From: an uncultured Alphaproteobacteria bacterium
GTDB taxonomy: Bacteria; Pseudomonadota; Alphaproteobacteria; CAAHEQ01; UBA3637
Direction of reading: 5' to 3'
Assembly (NCBI GenBank): GCA_934216505.1
Contig: CAKQBW010000001.1
Location: 85,788 to 149,787, forward strand
DNA length: 64,000 nucleotides
Shown: positions 2,742 to 44,129 of the stretch, piece after piece
Numbering within the stretch: position 1 is the stretch's first letter
Layout of the letters: every line of letters begins with the position of its first letter
The notes under the pieces: generated by a model
Told to the model about the DNA's origin: nothing
What the model saw: only the letters and a program-made list of their open reading frames with translations
Database searches by the model: none
Translations under genes and position numbers: made by a program

Positions 2742-2770
2742 TTGACAAGGTAAAAAAAATAAGGTATAAT
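2742..2770 (+). promoter_or_regulatory. consensus sigma70 promoter (TTGACA-17-TATAAT) upstream of rpmH
   Basis: TTGACA at 2742-2747, 17-nt spacer, TATAAT at 2765-2770. An AAGGAG RBS precedes the ATG at 2803. Confidence 0.7.
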
Positions 2771-2802
2771 TCCCCCATTATTTTAGAACAAGGAGTTAAA
2801 AG

Positions 2803-2943
2803 ATGACAACAAAACGTACATATCAACCTGGAAAATTGGTTCGCACACGTCGTCATGGTTTTCGTGCCCGTATGGAGACAAAAGGGGGACAAAAAGTGTT
2901 GAACGCCCGTCGTGCCAAAGGTCGTAAGACTTTAAGTGCTTAA
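2803..2943 (+). CDS. rpmH: 50S ribosomal protein L34
   Basis: 46-aa ORF absent from the ORF track. Translation [46 protein letters not shown] is the canonical L34 sequence. It is immediately followed by rnpA, the conserved arrangement. Confidence 0.9.
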
Positions 2944-3016
2944 GGACGAATTTAATCAATTCACGGAAAGCACCTGAATTTTTTTATCGGGTGCTTTTTC
3001 TTTTGGGAAGAACACG

Positions 3017-3373
3017 ATGTCTTTGATTCGGATTAAACGCCATTTTGATTTTGTGGAGATGCGTCAAGCCCCCTTAAAGGCTTTCACGCATTCTTTTGTA
3101 TTACAGGTGCGCCCCACGGATAAAAATCAGACCAGAATAGGTTTTACGGTTTCTAAAAAAATTTCTAAATTAGCGGTTGTTCGGAATCATTTGCGCCGTC
3201 AAATGCGGGAAATTGCCCGTTTATCGCCTGAATTACAGGAGAAATATCCCAGCCATGATTTAATTTTAGTGGCCCGACATGAGGCTTTAAATCGTTCTTA
3301 TCAACAACTGACACAAGATTTTAAATACTTGTTGTCCCATGTAAAAGAAATGAATGATGAAAAAAATGGCTAG
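3017..3373 (+). CDS. rnpA: ribonuclease P protein component
   Basis: 118-aa basic protein directly downstream of rpmH. The conserved rpmH–rnpA–yidD order supports the call. Confidence 0.75.
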   Translation: MSLIRIKRHFDFVEMRQAPLKAFTHSFVLQVRPTDKNQTRIGFTVSKKISKLAVVRNHLRRQMREIARLSPELQEKYPSHDLILVARHEALNRSYQQLTQDFKYLLSHVKEMNDEKNG

Positions 3374-3566
3374 TTTCTTCATACGCATTTATCAACTGAC
3401 TTTTTCATCGTTGGTGGGAAATTGTTGTCGCTTTCAACCAACTTGTTCGGAATATGCACATCAATCTTTTCAAAAATATGGGGTGTTGAAGGGGGGGTAT
3501 TTGACCCTTAAACGGCTTTTACGGTGTCACCCGTTTGCTAAAGGGGGCTATGACCCTGTTCCGTAA
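3354..3566 (+). CDS. yidD: membrane protein insertion efficiency factor YidD
   Basis: Contains the FFIRIYQ…CRFQPTCSEYA…HGxxKGxxLxxxRLxRCHPF YidD signature and overlaps the rnpA 3' end. Confidence 0.8.
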   Translation: MMKKMASFFIRIYQLTFSSLVGNCCRFQPTCSEYAHQSFQKYGVLKGGYLTLKRLLRCHPFAKGGYDPVP

Positions 3567-3645
3567 AAAATAAATAAAGTCATTGACATTTGATGAAAAA
3601 ATCAGTATTCTAACCCACATATTATTCATAATGAAAGGAATTAAA

Positions 3646-29882: not shown

Positions 29883-30581
29883 TTATTTCATGTGTATTAA
29901 AAAAAAGCTGATAAAAGCGGCAACCCCTAGGGCAGGGCCATAGGCTCCCTTTTTATGGATATTTAAAGCAGAAAAGAGGACAAAAAATAAAAATGATAAA
30001 ATTAAGGTGCTACTCAATCCAATCACCCCTAACCATGACCCTAAGGCGGTAATCATTTTAACATCGCCACAGCCCAATTCTTTTTTAGGTGAAAAAGCCA
30101 AAGCTAGTACAGACAAAATGGAAACAAGGTAGCCACTAAAAGCTCCCGCTAAGGCCATTTCAACGGAAAAAGAAGCGGATTGGGTGGCAAACAAAATTCC
30201 CAATAATAAAAGGGGGAGGGTGAAAAAATCAGGTAAAAGGCAATACAGTGCATCTACAATGATGGAAGCACATACAATCCATATAAAAAGACATGCTAAA
30301 ATCTGTAAGGGGGCAGGAATCAATAAGGAGACCAAAGCAAAAAGAACTGCACATAAACCTGCCCAAAAAAGGCCCCAATAGTAAAGTTTATTTCTGATTT
30401 TTTTCCACAGTAAATAGCGTTGTTCGTTTTTTTTATGGGGGATTCTGGGGCGATGAAACAAACGCAAAATAATTTCACCTGGATCGGCGGGAATCAACTT
30501 TCCAAACCTTCCCGAAAAAAAGGGGAGGATGAAACCCAATAGCATGCCCCATACAGCAAAAAGAATAATTTTGTTTTCCAT
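29883..30581 (-). CDS. A24-family prepilin peptidase (no N-terminal methyltransferase or zinc domain)
   Basis: Polytopic membrane protein with LGCGDVKMITALGSWLG, matching the second catalytic Asp region GGGDVKL of type IV prepilin peptidases. Confidence 0.6.
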   Translation of the reverse strand: MENKIILFAVWGMLLGFILPFFSGRFGKLIPADPGEIILRLFHRPRIPHKKNEQRYLLWKKIRNKLYYWGLFWAGLCAVLFALVSLLIPAPLQILACLFIWIVCASIIVDALYCLLPDFFTLPLLLLGILFATQSASFSVEMALAGAFSGYLVSILSVLALAFSPKKELGCGDVKMITALGSWLGVIGLSSTLILSFLFFVLFSALNIHKKGAYGPALGVAAFISFFLIHMK

Positions 30582-37115: not shown

Positions 37116-37436
37116 ATGGAAATTTTAAATGATACAACTTTTGATAACAAAGTCTTAGTGGCCCCTAAGGCTGTTTTGGTTGATTTTTTTGCCACTTGGT
37201 GTGGCCCTTGTCGGCAAATGTTGCCCGTCGTTGAGGAAGTTGCGCAAGAACTTCAAGAAAAAATTGATGTTTATAAGGTAGATGTAGATGAGGCTTCGCT
37301 TATCTCTGATCGGTATGAAATTCAAAGTATTCCTCATTTGATTCTATTTAAGGCAGGAAAGATTTTGGCCCAAAAGAATGGAGCCTGTAGCAAAGCCGAA
37401 TTGTTAAAATGGATAGATGAAAACACAAAGGTCTAG
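37116..37436 (+). CDS. trxA: thioredoxin
   Basis: WCGPC active site; 106 aa. Confidence 0.9.
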   Translation: MEILNDTTFDNKVLVAPKAVLVDFFATWCGPCRQMLPVVEEVAQELQEKIDVYKVDVDEASLISDRYEIQSIPHLILFKAGKILAQKNGACSKAELLKWIDENTKV

Positions 37437-38049: not shown

Positions 38050-38124
38050 GGCCGGTTGGCAGAATGGCTTATGCAGAGGACTGCAAATCCTTTTATACTG
38101 GTTCGATTCCGGTACCGGCCTCCA
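38050..38124 (+). tRNA. tRNA-Cys (anticodon GCA)
   Basis: Acceptor GGCCGGT/ACCGGCC, anticodon loop CTGCAAA, T-arm ACTGG TTCGATT CCGGT, encoded CCA. Confidence 0.85.
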
Positions 38125-38144
38125 AAAATTATGACAAATAGTTC

Positions 38145-38172
38145 TTGCTTTTTAAAAAACTTTTTGTTATAA
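38145..38172 (+). promoter_or_regulatory. sigma70 promoter for tRNA-Asn (TTGCTT-16-TATAAT)
   Basis: Perfect -10 TATAAT at 38167-72. The tRNA starts at 38184. Confidence 0.5.
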
Positions 38173-38183
38173 TGACCACTGTT

Positions 38184-38258
38184 TCCAGCGTAGCTCAGTG
38201 GTAGAGCAATCGGCTGTTAACCGATTGGTCGTAGGTTCGAGCCCTACCGCTGGAGCCA
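38184..38258 (+). tRNA. tRNA-Asn (anticodon GTT)
   Basis: Acceptor TCCAGCG/CGCTGGA, D-arm GCTC AGTGGTA GAGC, anticodon loop CTGTTAA, T-arm GTAGG TTCGAGC CCTAC, encoded CCA. A terminator-like hairpin follows at 38262-38295. Confidence 0.85.
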
Positions 38259-38428
38259 ATTACAAGAGGAAGGTTGTTTTGCCCTCCTCTTTTTTATTTT
38301 AAACGAAAACGCCTTATTCGGCCAAAGATAATTTGAATACAGAAATACTCAATCAATTTACTTTTTTTGCTTGATTTTTGTTTTTTTTTCGTATCCTAAA
38401 AGTATAGGATCTTACTGAAAGGAAAAAA

Positions 38429-39223
38429 ATGACAAAAAAAACTGAAGAAAAGCCCCAATTAGTTCGCCAAGATGCTGATTTGCTGAACCCCATTGTCTCT
38501 ACTTGGACATATAAAGGAGAGATTATGGAGTTTATGGGGGTAAAGAGAACCCGCACCTTTGAAACAATGGACCACCCTGATTATGAACGAGGGGTGGGAT
38601 TCCGGGAACAAGAAGTTTGGATCCCCCGCCCTGGTCCAATGAAAGTCTTTAATAAAGATGGACTTTTAATTGAAGAAGGTACAGTAGATTTCGTTAAGGC
38701 TAAAGATGATATTGGCTCATGGAATTTGACTTATGTTGGGAAAATGACACGTTATGGCTATGATAAAAAGGGGAAACTTTTGTATCGTAGGGAAAGTGAA
38801 TTTTCACCTAAAGATTCTCATATAGAATGGAGTAAGCATTATGACAAAGAGGGTCAATTAGTAAGTGAATCCACTTATGATAAATACGGCAAGGAACGTT
38901 CATTTAAATTTTTTAACTCAGATTCAGGGGAACTAAGTTTCCGCACTTTTAATTCAAAGAGCGGGAAAGGCTATTATTTCTTTGGTGAGGAAAAAGCGGA
39001 TAAAAATCACCCTGAAGCACAGCGTTTAATTCGGGACAATATCGCCAGCAAGAAAACAGATAAAAAAGCACGGCGGGCCGCTTTAAAGGAAATTTTGGCG
39101 GCACGGCAAGAGGGGCAGACAGAAAAAGCACAAGAAATTCGTCATGAATTTGATAAAAGACCTCTACCAAAACCCTCTTTATGGGGTAAATTGACGACTC
39201 TTGTTAAAGGTAATCGGCGTTAA
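38429..39223 (+). CDS. MORN / YwqK-family repeat protein
   Basis: Tandem Y-x-x-G-x-x-x-G-x-W repeats (YGYDKKGKLLY, YDKEGQLVSESTY, YDKYGKERSF). The C-terminus is Lys/Arg-rich. Confidence 0.5.
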   Translation: MTKKTEEKPQLVRQDADLLNPIVSTWTYKGEIMEFMGVKRTRTFETMDHPDYERGVGFREQEVWIPRPGPMKVFNKDGLLIEEGTVDFVKAKDDIGSWNLTYVGKMTRYGYDKKGKLLYRRESEFSPKDSHIEWSKHYDKEGQLVSESTYDKYGKERSFKFFNSDSGELSFRTFNSKSGKGYYFFGEEKADKNHPEAQRLIRDNIASKKTDKKARRAALKEILAARQEGQTEKAQEIRHEFDKRPLPKPSLWGKLTTLVKGNRR

Positions 39224-39242
39224 AAAAGGAAAATCTTTTTTT

Positions 39243-39275
39243 AGGGAGGGCATTTGCCCTCCCCTTTTTGGGGTT
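39243..39275 (+). terminator. rho-independent terminator after the YwqK-family gene
   Basis: GGGAGGGCATTTGCCCTCCC hairpin followed by TTTTT. Confidence 0.7.
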
Positions 39276-39504
39276 ATTCTGCCCCACTCTGTCATTCCCT
39301 CACTTTTTACTTTTCCTATCATTTCCGCCGATGCGGGAATCTCGTCAAAAAGTACTTTATTTTACAAGATACCCGATCAGGTCGGGCATGACAATTCCCT
39401 GTTTTGGCCTGTATTTATGGGCTGTGTGAGGGAAAAAGAGAAATTTCAAAAAGCGGGGGTAAAAACAGGCGATAAAGCCCGTCAATAAAGGGAAGTAAGG
39501 TATA

Positions 39505-39524
39505 ACAAAAAGGATCGTTTTTGT
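39505..39524. promoter_or_regulatory. palindromic candidate operator site 1 (ACAAAAAgGATCGTTTTTGT)
   Basis: Near-perfect 20-bp palindrome centred on GATC, about 170 bp upstream of the pilin-like gene A. Confidence 0.4.
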
Positions 39525-39637
39525 CAATATACTTTTTCCCGTGTTTGAGGATTTTTATTATTTTACAATAACATATTGATTTTACATGAGAAAACACTCA
39601 TTTTAAAGTTTGATGGAATTGTCCTTTTTCCCCTATT

Positions 39638-39657
39638 CCAAAAACGATCGTTTTTGT
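39638..39657. promoter_or_regulatory. palindromic candidate operator site 2 (cCAAAAAcGATCGTTTTTGT) overlapping the putative -35/-10 of pilin-like gene A
   Basis: 18 of 19 positions match site 1. The AAAAACGATCGTTTTT core is a perfect palindrome. Centre-to-centre spacing to site 1 is about 133 bp. A TATAGT -10 candidate lies at 39658-63 and GGGAG RBS at 39683-87. Confidence 0.45.
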
Positions 39658-39694
39658 TATAGTAATTTTCATTCAATTTTGTGGGAGATTTTAC

Positions 39695-40942
39695 ATGCAA
39701 AAAACAAATGAATCAGGGCGCAGTATGGTTGAAATGCTGGGCGTGTTGGCGATTATTGGCGTCCTCTCTGTCGGTGGCGTAGCGGGATTTAACCTTGCCA
39801 TGAATAAACATTGTGCTAATAATACTGTGGTCTATGTCAATCAGTTAGCTGTCCAAGGAACAAGTCAAATGCTGATGGGCGTAAAACCTTCTTTGGGGCA
39901 ATACCCTGACAAAACTCCCAGTGGATACCCGAGTACCCTCACGACAGAAGAAACTAATCCCAATGCTTTTTATGTAAAAATATCTCAAGTGCCGAGCGCT
40001 GTTTGCAAGCAAATCTTAGGTCTTCAAAAAGGGTGGCAGGCCGTCAATGACATTGGCTTTTATAATGGGGCAACGACTTGCGATGACAAAGAAAATGTGG
40101 ATATGTGGTTTGAAATTAAATCTTCCCTGAATAAAGAAAATGAAAATGTCCATTGTAAATCTCATCAGGATTGTTATAACTGGTTAGGATATGAGGCCCG
40201 TTGTTCTCCCAAAGGAATTTGTCTCCCATACTGTGGAGAAAATCAAGTTAAAACACCCGTTGGTTGTTGTGATAAAAATCGTGTTTTCAATGGTGGCTGT
40301 TGCATAAGTGATGTTATTGAAGAAAACGGCATTAAAAAATGCTGTGCCGCCAATGCTGATGTTTCTATTTGTTGCCCTGAAAACGAATGGGGAATCAATA
40401 TAAAGGGTGTTTTATCATGCATCTCTTGTGATGATCCTCGTGCTTTAGACAGCGGCTTTAGTTGGGGGTATTGTAAAGTTTGCCCTAACCGTCTTCGTAA
40501 TGCGAACCAATGTGCTCTCGGTTGCGCAGATCCATACGCCGTCAAAACATTAAGTGGATATTGCTATTGTCCAATGGACAGGCCTGTCCAAACACGTGAT
40601 GGAAAATGCCATCCCTGTCATTATGAAGAACGTAGTTCTGCCCAACCTGTTATAGGCATGCTTACCTTAGGGAGTCAAGGCATGATACACTACTGTAATC
40701 GTCGTGGCATAACCTACTCTTGGCCCTGTATTGAGGGAGAGGTCGGTATGGCTAAAAATGATACTCTTGCCATGGCAGATGGGAGCACCTATACCGCAAC
40801 CACAACGGAAGGCGCCTGTCTGGCCTGTGATACAGTGAATATTTCAAAACTCCCCTATCAAGCCCAATGTGAATCTTGTGGGGGACACTGGGACGGTGAA
40901 AATTGGTACACAGGCGTTTGTGTGCCAAAAGAAACAGACTAA
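39695..40942 (+). CDS. type IV prepilin-like Cys-rich secreted/surface protein, paralog A
   Basis: N-terminus MQKTNESG|RSMVEMLGVLAIIGVLSVGG (Gly, Glu at +5, hydrophobic helix), 23 aa identical to paralog B. Shares the VCKQILGL… block with paralogs B and C. The C-terminal ~280 aa contain about 40 Cys (CC and CxxC clusters). Confidence 0.55.
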   Translation: MQKTNESGRSMVEMLGVLAIIGVLSVGGVAGFNLAMNKHCANNTVVYVNQLAVQGTSQMLMGVKPSLGQYPDKTPSGYPSTLTTEETNPNAFYVKISQVPSAVCKQILGLQKGWQAVNDIGFYNGATTCDDKENVDMWFEIKSSLNKENENVHCKSHQDCYNWLGYEARCSPKGICLPYCGENQVKTPVGCCDKNRVFNGGCCISDVIEENGIKKCCAANADVSICCPENEWGINIKGVLSCISCDDPRALDSGFSWGYCKVCPNRLRNANQCALGCADPYAVKTLSGYCYCPMDRPVQTRDGKCHPCHYEERSSAQPVIGMLTLGSQGMIHYCNRRGITYSWPCIEGEVGMAKNDTLAMADGSTYTATTTEGACLACDTVNISKLPYQAQCESCGGHWDGENWYTGVCVPKETD

Positions 40943-40998: not shown

Positions 40999-41073
40999 TG
41001 GTGGGTGCGACAGGGATTGAACCTGTGACCCCTACCGTGTGAAGGTAATGCTCTCCCGCTGAGCTACGCACCC
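40999..41073 (-). tRNA. tRNA-Val (anticodon CAC)
   Basis: Minus-strand cloverleaf: acceptor GGGTGCG/CGCACCC, D-arm GCTC AGCGGGA GAGC, anticodon loop TTCACAC, T-arm ACAGG TTCAATC CCTGT, encoded CCA. On the minus strand a terminator hairpin plus T-run follows at plus-strand coordinates 40970-40994. Confidence 0.85.
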
Positions 41074-41145
41074 AAGTTCAATACTCAGGATTATAATATA
41101 AAGACTTTTATATGTCAAGCAAAAAAAACGCTCTTTCAAATTTTT

Positions 41146-41718
41146 TTGTTGAAAAATAATTTTGTATATGATAATTATAAAACTTATTTACACAAAAGAG
41201 GACAAATGAAAATTGAATTTAAAAATACTGATTCTTTTGAAAATCTGATAAGCACTATGAAAAAGGAAGATGAAATTGAATGCCCTGCTTTGGATTTTAT
41301 GGCGCAAAATTTAAAAGAATTACAAGAACGAATCAAGGCTGTGATTTCTTTGGGGGGCACCGTTTATTTCGTTAAGGAAAATTTAAGGTTTTCCCCCGAA
41401 AAGACACCTCAACAAGAAATGTTGTTTCACCTGTTAGAGGTCTTTAAAAACTTTGAGCAGGAAAATATCTTAAAAAGGCGGCGATTGGGAATTCAAAAAG
41501 CCAAAGAACAAGGAAAGTATGCCAAAGAACGGCGAAAAAAACTGCCCTCGGATTTACAAGAGGCCCTCTTAAAAGACAGAGAAAACGGCTTAAATGTATC
41601 GGAAATCATCCAAAAATACAAAATAAGCCGAAAGACATTTTATAACTATTCAAAAAATTCAACAAATAACATTTTAAAAAACATAGGCATTTTGTTGGGC
41701 AATGACTTGAAAGAATAA
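41146..41718 (+). CDS. serine recombinase (resolvase/invertase) family remnant: C-terminal half of the catalytic domain plus HTH, N-terminally truncated or degenerate
   Basis: LDFMAQNLKELQERIKAVISLGGTVYFV…EMLFHLLEVFKNFEQENILKRRRLGIQKAKEQGKYAKERRKK aligns with the LDRLGR…AEFERxxIxERTxxG region of Tn3/gamma-delta resolvases. The C-terminal …SEIIQKYKISRKTFYNY is the recombinase HTH. The N-terminal YxRVSTxxQ Ser-nucleophile block is absent. Adjacent to tRNA-Val. Confidence 0.55.
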   Translation: MLKNNFVYDNYKTYLHKRGQMKIEFKNTDSFENLISTMKKEDEIECPALDFMAQNLKELQERIKAVISLGGTVYFVKENLRFSPEKTPQQEMLFHLLEVFKNFEQENILKRRRLGIQKAKEQGKYAKERRKKLPSDLQEALLKDRENGLNVSEIIQKYKISRKTFYNYSKNSTNNILKNIGILLGNDLKE

Positions 41719-41721
41719 AAG

Positions 41722-42099
41722 TTATTGATTTTGATTAGCCAAGAATCTTTTTTGACGTTCTACATAGACTTGATAACTGTTCCAGTCTGCTTGAATTTCC
41801 TCAGAAAGTTCCTGAGCATAAGTTTGAAAATAAGCATTGGCTTTTATTCTTAACAACGATTTTTCTTTGTTTCCAGGTATTTCTGGCCCGTCCCAAGGCA
41901 AAGCCACGATGGCTTTTTCTTTGGTGGCCAAATTAAAATGAACATCACCAATAGCCAATGTCTTTTCAAAAGAAAGGTTGTGATTCCTTAAATAATCACG
42001 GTGAGAACATTCCCGCCCTTTTGAATCACGATTTTGACTTTTCGCCCAAATGGCAATCACTAATTCATTGTTTTCGTTGCCTGCGACGATATATCTCAT
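41722..42099 (-). CDS. hypothetical protein (125 aa), no family recognised
   Basis: ORF with reasonable coding statistics, convergent with the recombinase remnant. Confidence 0.35.
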   Translation of the reverse strand: MRYIVAGNENNELVIAIWAKSQNRDSKGRECSHRDYLRNHNLSFEKTLAIGDVHFNLATKEKAIVALPWDGPEIPGNKEKSLLRIKANAYFQTYAQELSEEIQADWNSYQVYVERQKRFLANQNQ

Positions 42100-42236: not shown

Positions 42237-42773
42237 ATGGTCCCTAAAGAAAAACTATTATTGCTTTCGTGTTGCGCCCCCTGCTCTGTCGGGGTTATTG
42301 AAGATTTAAAGCGTCAAGACGTGGATTTTACGGTCCTGTTTTTTAATCCGAACATTCAGCCCGTTGAGGAATATCAAAAGCGATTAGAGGAAAACAGGCG
42401 TATCTGTGCTCTGTATCATGTTCCTTTTATTGATTTAGAATATACGCCTCAGAAATGGAAAGAATTTGTCAAAGGCTTGGAAAACGAGCCCGAAAAAGGA
42501 AAAAGGTGTGATAAATGCTTTTACTTTCGGTTGAAAAGAACAGCACAATATGCCAAAGAAAATGGCTATACGCGTATTTCTTCAGTGTTGGGGATTTCTA
42601 GGTTCAAGGACTTTAATCAGGTTTGTCGGGCTGGATTAAAAGTTCAGGAGGAAGAAAATATCCCCTATGATACCGAAAATTGGCGCAAAAAAGGACGGCT
42701 GGAACGTTCAGAACATTTATCCAAAGAGTTGTCCCTTTACCGTCAAACATACTGTGGGTGCAAGCCGAGGTAA
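42237..42773 (+). CDS. queH: epoxyqueuosine reductase QueH (DUF208)
   Basis: LLLLSCCAPCSVGVIE…FFNPNIQPVEEYQKR is the QueH CCAPC and NPNIHP signature. The ATG at 42237 is preferred over the ORF-track start at 42150. Confidence 0.7.
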   Translation: MVPKEKLLLLSCCAPCSVGVIEDLKRQDVDFTVLFFNPNIQPVEEYQKRLEENRRICALYHVPFIDLEYTPQKWKEFVKGLENEPEKGKRCDKCFYFRLKRTAQYAKENGYTRISSVLGISRFKDFNQVCRAGLKVQEEENIPYDTENWRKKGRLERSEHLSKELSLYRQTYCGCKPR

Positions 42774-42802: not shown

Positions 42803-43882
42803 CTATTGACATAATGCGTAGAAGGTGCTGTAACGAGGGATGCCGTTCATGCTCTGACTGAAGGTACGGACGCCGAGTGCGTAGCTAGAATCATGACTGT
42901 TATTCGTCCAATAATAAGAACTCCCAAAAGCCACTTTCAAAGCGTTCCAGTCCGCCCCTGTACAATTACTCCCAGAACAATAACCAGTTTCATTATTATA
43001 TCCTCCCGTAATCCCTAAGTCAGAGAGCAAAGCTAAACTTTTTCCATGCGCCAAACACCAATTGCGTGCGGCCCACCAAGATATACCACTAGAAGAATAC
43101 AAAAATGTTTTGCCATTATAGGTTGTTTCTGTCCCATTGTCTAATGCTATACAGGTACCTGTTGTCGGAACAGCACCATTCTCCCATTTTCCCGTAATTT
43201 GACAATACTTCCCTGCTTCTTTACAATCGGCATTTGTCGTGCAATCCCCTGTGAGGTCTGTCTTACATTCCCCGTTTCCAGAGTTATCGCTCGGTTGCCA
43301 AATGCCTTCAGCACATTGACAGTAGCCATTCACACAAGTGGCCCCACCCGAACAACTGTCTGTGCATTCATCGCCTTTGGGCCCTGATGGCGCAGGGTCG
43401 TTGGGGGACAAATCGTTATTATAGGTAATCGTGGTACAACCGTCATCAATCTTTCGGATAATCCCATTTTCTCCTTTCATGGCTTTCATTTGGGTACAAA
43501 CTTCGTCTGGGACATTTTCCAAGGTCAAACTAAAACGCTTATCAGTATTTTTATTCCAATTGGCTAAGCCCGTAAATTTCGCCCCGCCAACTTCGTTATC
43601 TGTGAATTCGCCCGGTGTCGGAGCCTCAGCCCCTCTTTGAATCTGTGTGGAAACTACGACTGCCCGAAGGGAAGCTTGTTGCAACAATTCATTTGCCCGA
43701 TGTTTATTCATGGCGGTGGTATAGCCCACTATACCGCCCACACTTAAAACCCCAATAATCGCCAAAACGCCCAGCATTTCCACCATAGACCGCCCTGATT
43801 CTTCTTGCCGATAAAGGCGGGCGCCAAAAAGATAATGTTTTCCCCTACCCGAAAAGACTTTTTCTTTAATTGGACTTTTCAT
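42803..43882 (-). CDS. type IV prepilin-like Cys-rich protein with C-terminal C-type-lectin-like domain, paralog B (start codon uncertain)
   Basis: Contains …ESG|RSMVEMLGVLAIIGVLSVGG, identical at the protein level to paralog A. Has RAVVVSTQIQ and VCTQMKAM…DDGCTTITYNNDL blocks shared with paralog C, then an EGF-like Cys-rich stretch. The C-terminus has a GISWWAARNWCLAHGKSLALLSDL…YYWTNNSHD…YALCQ pattern resembling a C-type lectin-like domain (WxxAxxxCxxxGxxLAxxxS…C-terminal Cys). Confidence 0.5.
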   Translation of the reverse strand: MKSPIKEKVFSGRGKHYLFGARLYRQEESGRSMVEMLGVLAIIGVLSVGGIVGYTTAMNKHRANELLQQASLRAVVVSTQIQRGAEAPTPGEFTDNEVGGAKFTGLANWNKNTDKRFSLTLENVPDEVCTQMKAMKGENGIIRKIDDGCTTITYNNDLSPNDPAPSGPKGDECTDSCSGGATCVNGYCQCAEGIWQPSDNSGNGECKTDLTGDCTTNADCKEAGKYCQITGKWENGAVPTTGTCIALDNGTETTYNGKTFLYSSSGISWWAARNWCLAHGKSLALLSDLGITGGYNNETGYCSGSNCTGADWNALKVAFGSSYYWTNNSHDSSYALGVRTFSQSMNGIPRYSTFYALCQ

Positions 43883-44129
43883 ATTCTAAAACTCCCATAA
43901 TTAAAAAATCGCTGTGATGAGCAGCGGTTGGAAGCTAGAAAACTATTACAGAAATAGCGTCGCATATTGGGGCGTAAATAGGCCTGTATTTTGCGACCAT
44001 CCAACCATAAAGATTGGAATTTTTACATCGTTTGATGTCTGTATTGAAGGTTTTCTAGGCCTCCACCAGAGGAATCACCTCTGGCAAATTCACACTAGCA
44101 AAAAATAAATTAAATATCAAGTACAAAAA

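Follow-up and report, generated by a model that had tools for sequence, protein, structure and literature searches.

The stretch of DNA studied here (the window) comprises 64,000 nucleotides of contig CAKQBW010000001.1 from an uncultured alphaproteobacterium and encodes, beside a tRNA-Val gene, a small protein that we call tRes. As judged from its amino acid sequence, tRes is an N-terminally truncated, catalytically dead serine-recombinase homologue. Its gene is under purifying selection and is not decaying. The explanation that we favour, with moderate confidence, is that dead tRes has been kept as a domesticated DNA-binding protein and that two recombinase-type palindromes upstream of the pilin-like gene pil1, sites A and B, form a separate two-site module for another recombinase. 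An earlier note on this DNA had drawn attention to the degenerate recombinase and the pilin-like genes on either side of it. This observation was confirmed, but sites A and B had been overlooked. The interval marked in the note covers tRNA-Val and tRes, whereas its end at 42099 is the start of a gene that went unmentioned, hyp125. The features around tRes are:

41206-41718, plus strand: tRes, truncated serine-recombinase homologue of 170 amino acids (aa); alternative TTG start at 41146, giving 190 aa
40999-41073, minus strand: tRNA-Val(cac), from ARAGORN and Rfam
41090-41118, minus strand: sigma-70-like promoter TTGACA-17-TATAAT facing tRNA-Val, 12/12 consensus match
41722-42099, minus strand: hyp125, a 125-aa protein
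42237-42773, plus strand: QueH (epoxyqueuosine reductase), the synteny anchor; Pfam E = 3e-58, synteny in L002-L012

The match of tRes to the Pfam Resolvase family (PF00239, E = 3.6e-12) was confined to profile positions 50-145 of 145, and that to HTH_7 was weak (E = 0.01) and below the gathering threshold. With HTH_7 sub-threshold, the C-terminal helix-turn-helix (HTH), like the E-helix and the arm, was identified by alignment and predicted structure. The protein does keep the second half of the catalytic domain and the HTH, as had been noted before. Its likely start is the ATG at 41206, with GAGGA at 41198-41202, 4 nt before it. In alignments with gamma-delta resolvase and with 30 full-length relatives, tRes begins at about position 32 of the family. 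The region with Tyr6, Arg8 and Ser10 and the QNTxRQ block is missing, and strand beta1 and helix A are gone. Compared with gamma-delta resolvase, Asp67 (D30 in tRes), Glu118 (E84) and Arg125 (R91) are kept, and Arg68, Arg71 and Arg119 are replaced by F31, Q34 and Q85, respectively; the DRLxR catalytic motif reads LDFMAQN. Of the catalytic residues that the earlier note had proposed to check, two more are thus lost besides the Ser-nucleophile block, Arg68 (to Phe) and Arg71 (to Gln). Lacking the nucleophile and both of these arginines, tRes is predicted to be unable to cut DNA.

The missing N-terminus was not found nearby. Three-frame translation of the spacer between tRNA-Val and tRes revealed no recombinase N-terminal remnant, the motif [YF]xRxS[TS]xxQ occurred in none of the six frames of the window, and no intact recombinase is encoded within these 64 kb. 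The spacer measures 72 nt if tRes starts at the TTG and 132 nt if it starts at the ATG, is near-invariant across strains and is mostly taken up by the tRNA-Val promoter, in agreement with the earlier argument that no missing exon fits there. Cluster members of 202 aa were rejected as intact alleles. Their longer start calls run into non-homologous spacer, giving MSSKKKTLFQIF..., with no catalytic N-terminus. The note had also named an intact domain hidden by a frameshift as the finding that would overturn it, and an assembly or sequencing artefact had nothing in its favour beyond this general possibility. The architecture was, however, identical in about 20 contigs from independent projects, the upstream spacer holds the tRNA-Val promoter, and R68 and R71 are substituted inside an intact frame. 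These observations exclude a hidden intact domain, and we regard an artefact as scarcely conceivable.

To quantify selection, we used the tRes 90% cluster, which contains 13 distinct protein sequences from independent gut metagenomes. Nine of them have 170 aa and three 202 aa; the remaining one, P0001, has 174 aa because its C-terminal end is replaced, which is the sole length change within the frame. The 170-codon frame is open in all 13 variants, with no stop or frameshift. The coding DNA of 11 loci yielded five alleles with a synonymous divergence of up to 16% (pS = 0.16). The counts of synonymous and non-synonymous differences and the resulting omega values were:

tRes, whole: 21 synonymous, 10 non-synonymous, omega about 0.115
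tRes residues 1-79, catalytic-domain remnant: 7 synonymous, 9 non-synonymous, omega about 0.3
tRes residues 80-170, E-helix, arm and HTH: 14 synonymous, 1 non-synonymous, omega about 0.02
DisA: 11 synonymous, 5 non-synonymous, omega 0.13
Thioredoxin (Trx): 6 synonymous, 3 non-synonymous, omega 0.13
hyp125: 14 synonymous, 11 non-synonymous, omega 0.19
QueH: 11 synonymous, 2 non-synonymous, omega 0.05
GAPDH: 44 synonymous, 1 non-synonymous, omega 0.007

The omega of tRes is similar to those of its neighbours DisA and Trx. The synonymous excess over the neutral expectation (binomial p = 6.4e-9) is concentrated in residues 80-170. The earlier note had offered two readings: tRes could be left over from an integrated element, or it could be a DNA-binding protein that has been domesticated. 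A pseudogene remnant of an element once integrated near tRNA-Val, open in frame by accident, would be in keeping with the loss of the nucleophile and two catalytic arginines, with a variable tRNA-adjacent slot that holds an unrelated open reading frame (ORF) in the sister species, with the low local GC content (0.345), with the lack of a conserved truncated family elsewhere and with the relaxed N-terminal half (7 versus 9). It is difficult to reconcile with the ratios of 21 to 10 overall and 14 to 1 in the C-terminal half, with a frame unbroken in 13 variants at up to 16% synonymous divergence and with the retained Shine-Dalgarno sequence. Because the population data combine a low omega with an intact frame in 13 variants, domestication is favoured, and the remnant becomes an unlikely alternative.

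The AlphaFold model of tRes, computed from the family alignment, reached a predicted local distance difference test (pLDDT) of 89 and comprises a long E-helix (68-101) and three C-terminal helices. Its top Foldseek matches were DNA-bound Tn3 and gamma-delta resolvase (probability 1.0). The recognition helix retains the family motif SRxTxY, and equivalents of E118, R125, G129 and A133 are conserved in the E-helix/arm region. As the constraint falls on the E-helix, the basic arm and the HTH, the most likely activity of tRes would be sequence-specific, dimeric DNA binding without catalysis, comparable to the repression by Tn3-family proteins at res. The protein would descend from a small Tn21-TnpR-like serine recombinase that lost about 35 N-terminal residues together with Arg68 and Arg71. 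With the Tn3-family resolvases (gamma-delta, Tn3, Tn21 TnpR) it shares the predicted fold from strand beta2 on, with E-helix, basic arm and C-terminal HTH. In contrast to them, it lacks some 35 N-terminal residues and an adjoining transposase or res, and is chromosomal, confined to a single species and under purifying selection.

An exhaustive HMMER search of 1.8 billion representatives returned no tRes relatives between 99% identity (its own cluster) and 37%; the next were typical recombinases around 190 aa long. Its closest full-length relatives (30-37% identity) carry the Tn21-TnpR-like signature YIRVSTxxQNTxRQ...GKYKGRK. The sister species L002 (GAPDH 97%, QueH 86% identical) shares the framework of tRNA-Cys, tRNA-Asn, tRNA-Val and QueH, with the position of tRNA-Val and the order of the tRNAs conserved. 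In L002, unrelated small ORFs replace the MORN gene, pil1, tRes and hyp125, and tRes is missing at the syntenic slot. Thus, tRes and hyp125 fill a variable slot between tRNA-Val and QueH that is specific to the present species. Across the strain contigs, the order and orientation of the tRes-hyp125-QueH block are constant, and hyp125, convergent with tRes, is always its neighbour in this species. We also considered tRes as a decayed copy of an Mpi-like invertase that occupies the QueH slot in the related genome L007. This origin was rejected, as there was no BLASTP similarity and tRes scored 24 bits against the NCBIfam Mpi model, whose cut-off is 272.

Upstream of tRes, the only dyads found were weak AT-rich repeats (71-79%), and they were judged unconvincing as autoregulatory operators. 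The tRNA-Val promoter (41090-41118, minus strand) is divergent from a weak predicted tRes promoter at 41149-41178. Weak AT-rich dyads at 41160-41195 and 41108-41159 overlap the latter and are not above chance in the AT-rich spacer.

Ahead of pil1, the window contains two near-perfect palindromes, CAAAAA(C/G)GATCGTTTTTG, at 39506-39523 and 39639-39656. They are the cores of sites A and B, which lie 133 bp apart centre to centre, with the centre of site B 47 bp before the pil1 ATG:

39501-39528, no strand: site A, 28-bp recombinase-type palindrome; repeat and palindrome scans, strain alignment
39529-39633, plus strand: the 105 bp enclosed by sites A and B, a candidate for inversion or looping; strain alignments, sequence
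39634-39661, no strand: site B, 28-bp palindrome; repeat and palindrome scans, strain alignment
39695-40942, plus strand: pil1, pilin-like; ORF, Pfam, strain comparison

Over its 28 bp, site A reads TATAACAAAAAGG AT CGTTTTTGTCAATA, and other strains carry the perfect core CAAAAACGATCGTTTTTG; site B reads TATTCCAAAAACG AT CGTTTTTGTTATA. Together they form an inverted repeat with 23-nt arms of 96% complementarity. The palindrome core has no other copy in the window, where 0.01 chance matches were expected, and the cores of both sites are kept in strains with strongly diverged flanks. Two candidate promoters for pil1 were noted. The first, inside the A-B segment and aimed at pil1, consists of TTGATT (39579-39584), 17 nt and YATTTT; it is partly conserved and matched 9/12 in the promoter scan. 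The second is an extended -10-like sequence, TGTTATAGT (TGnTATAGT), which lies outside the segment, overlapping site B, and precedes the pil1 ribosome-binding site by 30 bp. The assignment between the two is ambiguous.

Like the hix, gix and mix sites of the Hin/Gin/Cin/Pin/Min (Din) recombinases, sites A and B are dyads of 26-28 bp around a central 2 bp, in which positions 4-8 form an A-tract and position 9 is C. In the same register, the window has CGTTTTTG, mix CGTTTTT and hixL GGTTTTTG (PMC3241671 Table 3), and the palindrome carries at positions 6-4 the AAA that Gin and Hin require (PMC3985619). At their centre, A and B have the symmetric AT of Tn3/gamma-delta res site I, where those sites have AA or GA. 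A Fis-type enhancer was not identified, and the segment is far below the 1-kb and 3-kb inverted segments of Hin and Gin.

An exact 18-mer scan of public metagenome and viral contigs yielded at least 122 loci with the palindrome. Among the matches listed, a small serine recombinase was encoded in 30 of the 122, and in 21 loci the palindrome lay 52-339 bp from the recombinase start codon, always upstream. The contigs that carry both range from 31% to 68% GC and their recombinase sequences are diverse, so the association does not stem from one element sampled repeatedly. At many sites the palindrome extends to the consensus TGTNNCAAAAACG-AT-CGTTTTTGNNACA. A TGT...ACA dyad of this kind is typical of res site I (gamma-delta res). 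Given the association with recombinase genes and the hix/gix/mix register, the palindrome is, by sequence comparison, a serine-recombinase target. In a group of soil-type metagenome contigs (L028-L147, e.g., L048, L063, L071, L081, L084, L089 and L107), it is prolonged to TGTNNCAAAAACGATCGTTTTTGNNACA, with GGGGAGAGGGAGG / CCTCCCTCTCCCC-like sequences on its flanks. Several of these loci have second near-copies of the palindrome about 550-2000 bp away. The soil-contig palindromes may belong to a family of small mobile or invertible elements.

Two-site modules with a spacing of 131-134 bp were found at four further loci. One (L051) is a pil1-type locus, 90% identical, and another (L130) lies upstream of a pilin-like gene that is 60% identical to pil2, the second pilin-like gene of the window. 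In a related organism (L106), the module precedes the gene of a secreted protein that shares the lectin-like WWAAxxWC motif of pil2, and in an unrelated high-GC organism (L124), two copies 131 bp apart adjoin an intact 203-aa recombinase gene. Three related rabbit-gut alphaproteobacterial metagenome-assembled genomes (MAGs) encode a 197-aa recombinase with a complete Resolvase domain (L007, 8883-9708; L008, about 2750-3600; L009, 2261-3542), which scored 283 bits against the NCBIfam equivalog of the Mpi master invertase (cut-off 272). In L009, the invertase gene adjoins a gene for a 607-aa pilin-like, lectin-tipped protein, upstream of which repeats of the form AATTAAACGTAC(C/G)TTTAAT stand 134 bp apart. 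Their core, AAACG-TA-CGTTT, differs from that in the window, AAACG-AT-CGTTT, in the centre alone. A second repeat pair, ATAGCGTTCGCTA, is spaced at 151 bp upstream of the invertase gene in L007, L008 and L009 and encloses a strong TTGCAT-17-TATAAT promoter. In L007, the invertase gene immediately precedes QueH and so has the position that belongs to tRes and hyp125 in the window.

In Bacteroides fragilis, the serine recombinase Mpi acts in trans and inverts at least 13 scattered promoter regions for surface structures, short segments with an inverted repeat on either side (PMC4747536, PMC5903667). The pil1 module has the same layout, with a candidate promoter, and an AAACG-NN-CGTTT core like that of the L009 repeats. 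The two anatomical features of an inverton are present in the window, a repeat pair flanking a segment of ~100-250 bp before a surface-protein gene and repeats that are, by sequence comparison, serine-recombinase targets. The module departs from the Bacteroides system in its alphaproteobacterial host, in preceding pilin-like adhesin genes instead of capsule operons, in the absence of an invertase from the window and in that no flipped copy was seen; from L009 it differs by the AT centre in place of TA. The repeat consensus of Mpi, ARACGTWCGT, played no part in this comparison. On the strength of the shared layout, the Mpi-family invertases in L007-L009 and the B. fragilis precedent, the pil1 module has the look of an invertible promoter of the Mpi type or of a control region with two operators. 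The recombinase that serves it would most likely be another, intact one with its gene beyond the window.

A closer link between the two parts of the locus would exist if tRes were a dedicated binder of sites A and B that represses pil1 or locks the orientation of a switch. The tRes gene is 1.5 kb away from sites A and B, the sole recombinase-type sites of the 64 kb, its product retains the site-recognising parts (E-helix, arm and HTH), site B overlaps the extended -10-like sequence near the pil1 ribosome-binding site, and Tn3-family resolvases repress transcription at res. Yet the recombinases linked to the palindrome are Hin/Gin/gamma-delta-like (MLIGYARVSTxDQN), whereas tRes is Tn21-like. 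Within the tRes subfamily, none of 80 viral-contig loci carried the palindrome at up to four mismatches, one spurious match aside, and the idea that it is the res site of tRes's own subfamily was discarded. Moreover, strain L023 keeps tRes but has neither pil1 nor either site, and of the four half-sites of A and B, three carry TAT at the outer end, a place taken by TGT in the widespread sites. The L009 Mpi-like invertase and tRes share no BLASTP similarity. Hence, tRes is probably not the cognate binder of sites A and B, and the dedicated-binder proposal is unlikely. We are slightly more sceptical still of its more specific form, a tRes domesticated as a regulator at Mpi/Din-type sites that represses the adhesin gene, or that locks or biases a phase switch run by an invertase.

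Our preferred explanation, a dead tRes kept for DNA binding and a separate pil1 module, has to be weighed against several observations that speak against it. No similarly truncated homologue family was found outside the species: the word-index search returned the protein's own cluster, and HMMER returned full-length proteins of at most 37% identity plus scattered short fragments. Domestication therefore rests on polymorphism within the species, with five alleles only. The remnant catalytic subdomain (omega about 0.3), being without strand beta1 and helix A, may not fold. As to the module, the inner 105 bp had the same orientation relative to the gene in 8/8 contigs from different samples and species, where assemblies show the majority form only, and an intact recombinase to serve sites A and B was not found within the 64-kb window.

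The arrangement of the pilin-like genes had led the earlier note to consider an invertible, shufflon-type switch, with ongoing inversion thought unlikely and a past one possible. The features that bear on this question, besides pil1, are:

39710-39820, plus strand: left arm of the inverted repeat, the pil1 N-terminal coding sequence
42803-43882, minus strand: pil2, pilin-like paralogue
43691-43801, minus strand: right arm of the inverted repeat, the pil2 N-terminal coding sequence

The two genes are convergent, as described (39695-40942, plus strand; 42803-43882, minus strand), and their 5' ends form an inverted repeat of 111 nt with 77% identity, close to the earlier estimate of roughly 80% over about 110 nt. 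The repeat encodes 31 identical residues out of 37; its longest exact run is 15 nt, and 13 of its 25 differences fall at third codon positions. The first 23 pilin codons specify the same residues despite 10 synonymous nucleotide differences. Both proteins carry SG|RSMVEMLGVLAIIGVLSVGG, i.e., a short leader, Gly, Glu at +5 and a hydrophobic helix. What the inverted repeat represents is the conserved stretch that codes for the prepilin leader and the hydrophobic helix, and no recombination is required to explain it.

For the 39.8-43.7 kb segment to be a present or recent shufflon-like element that swaps pilin C-termini via the 5' repeat, one may cite the convergent paralogues, the 111-nt repeat and the recombinase homologue between them. 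The same constellation, with conserved pilin N-terminal coding sequence, variable C-termini and a recombinase homologue nearby, is seen in the R64 shufflon (Rci) and at Moraxella tfpQ/tfpI (Piv). In those systems, one constant region next to the promoter is linked to alternative C-termini, the crossover repeats are near-identical, and the recombinases are active, Rci being a tyrosine and Piv a DEDD recombinase. Here, by contrast, each gene is complete, identity across the repeat is 77%, with exact runs of at most 15 nt and mostly synonymous differences, the recombinase is dead, and no rearranged form occurs among the strain contigs. Wherever an assembled strain contig extends to one of the segment's junctions, its order matches that of the window. 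One arm is missing from L023 and the other from L018 and L019, and the orientation of tRNA-Val and QueH in L002 is that of the window. The shufflon is thus not supported. Coding conservation and colinear contigs bear out the view that ongoing inversion is unlikely, whereas the suggested past inversion finds no support, since neither the strain contigs nor the comparison with the sister species revealed any inversion between the arms. We consider such an element very improbable.

The remaining features of the neighbourhood that are mentioned in the text are:

37116-37436, plus strand: thioredoxin (Trx)
38050-38258, plus strand: tRNA-Cys and tRNA-Asn
38429-39223, plus strand: MORN-like protein, 264 aa
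44177-45250, minus strand: GAPDH
29883-30581: prepilin peptidase (Peptidase_A24)

The rest of the neighbourhood consists of housekeeping genes, and no known RNAs beyond the three tRNAs were detected within 37.4-44.3 kb. Strains differ around the tRes block, the pilin-like genes varying by presence or absence. The MORN-like gene is missing from most of them (structural polymorphism at 38309-39226), pil1 is missing from L023 (polymorphism at 38331-40924), the middle of pil1 is hypervariable and unalignable between strains (40174-40856), and a deletion in L018 and L019 has removed the pil2 5' end together with its repeat arm (43453-43935). Contig L232, 100% identical to the window, stops at 43430, beside the boundary of this deletion. 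Relatives found with the QueH anchor were only Alphaproteobacteria MAGs from rumen, rabbit and other gut samples, and contigs near-identical to the window came from mouse, pig and other gut metagenomes.

The pil1 protein has a leader, G|RSMVE, a hydrophobic helix and a Cys-rich C-terminus; its exact sequence is not on record. The pil2 protein, which is conserved in the sister species, combines a Cys-rich region with a lectin-like C-terminus. Both fell below the threshold for the Pfam families N_methyl and PilS. The prepilin peptidase gene, 9 kb upstream among housekeeping genes, fits a prepilin-type processing of both proteins; the annotated window ORFs included neither an ATPase for pilus assembly nor a platform gene. 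The C-terminal motif (N/S)WW(A/S)AxxWCxxxG(K/H)xLA is common to the pilin-like and secreted proteins of the lineage. This WW/WC module (window, 42803-43100; L106, 2017-2457; L009, 305-700; L002, 10946-11200) resembles C-type lectins and had no Pfam match.

hyp125 had no match in Pfam or NCBIfam. Its homologues in other genomes, with 47-50% identity, never adjoin recombinases. In other gut genomes (L014, 5560-6372; L015; L017), they occur as tandem paralogue pairs of 125 and 123 aa, directly upstream of a glycosyltransferase and dTDP-rhamnose biosynthesis cluster. The proposal that hyp125 and tRes form one mobile element was dismissed, because hyp125 homologues adjoin glycosyltransferase/rhamnose genes or EF-Tu and never a recombinase.

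Both tRes and the pil1 module are variants of known things, the one a resolvase derivative, the other an Mpi-like inverton or an operator pair. The points of note are the signs of selection on a serine recombinase that has lost catalysis and a wider range of Mpi-type switches, which may include the pilin-like adhesins of gut Alphaproteobacteria. A truncated resolvase gene is usually dismissed as debris; here, selection has retained one past its catalytic loss. If our explanation is true, tRes would clearly exemplify, in bacteria, the exaptation of a serine recombinase for DNA binding. Moreover, the two-site module and the invertases of the Mpi family in related genomes suggest that uncultured gut Alphaproteobacteria may subject their pilin-like, lectin-tipped adhesins to phase variation, by a switch of the type that operates on Bacteroides capsules.

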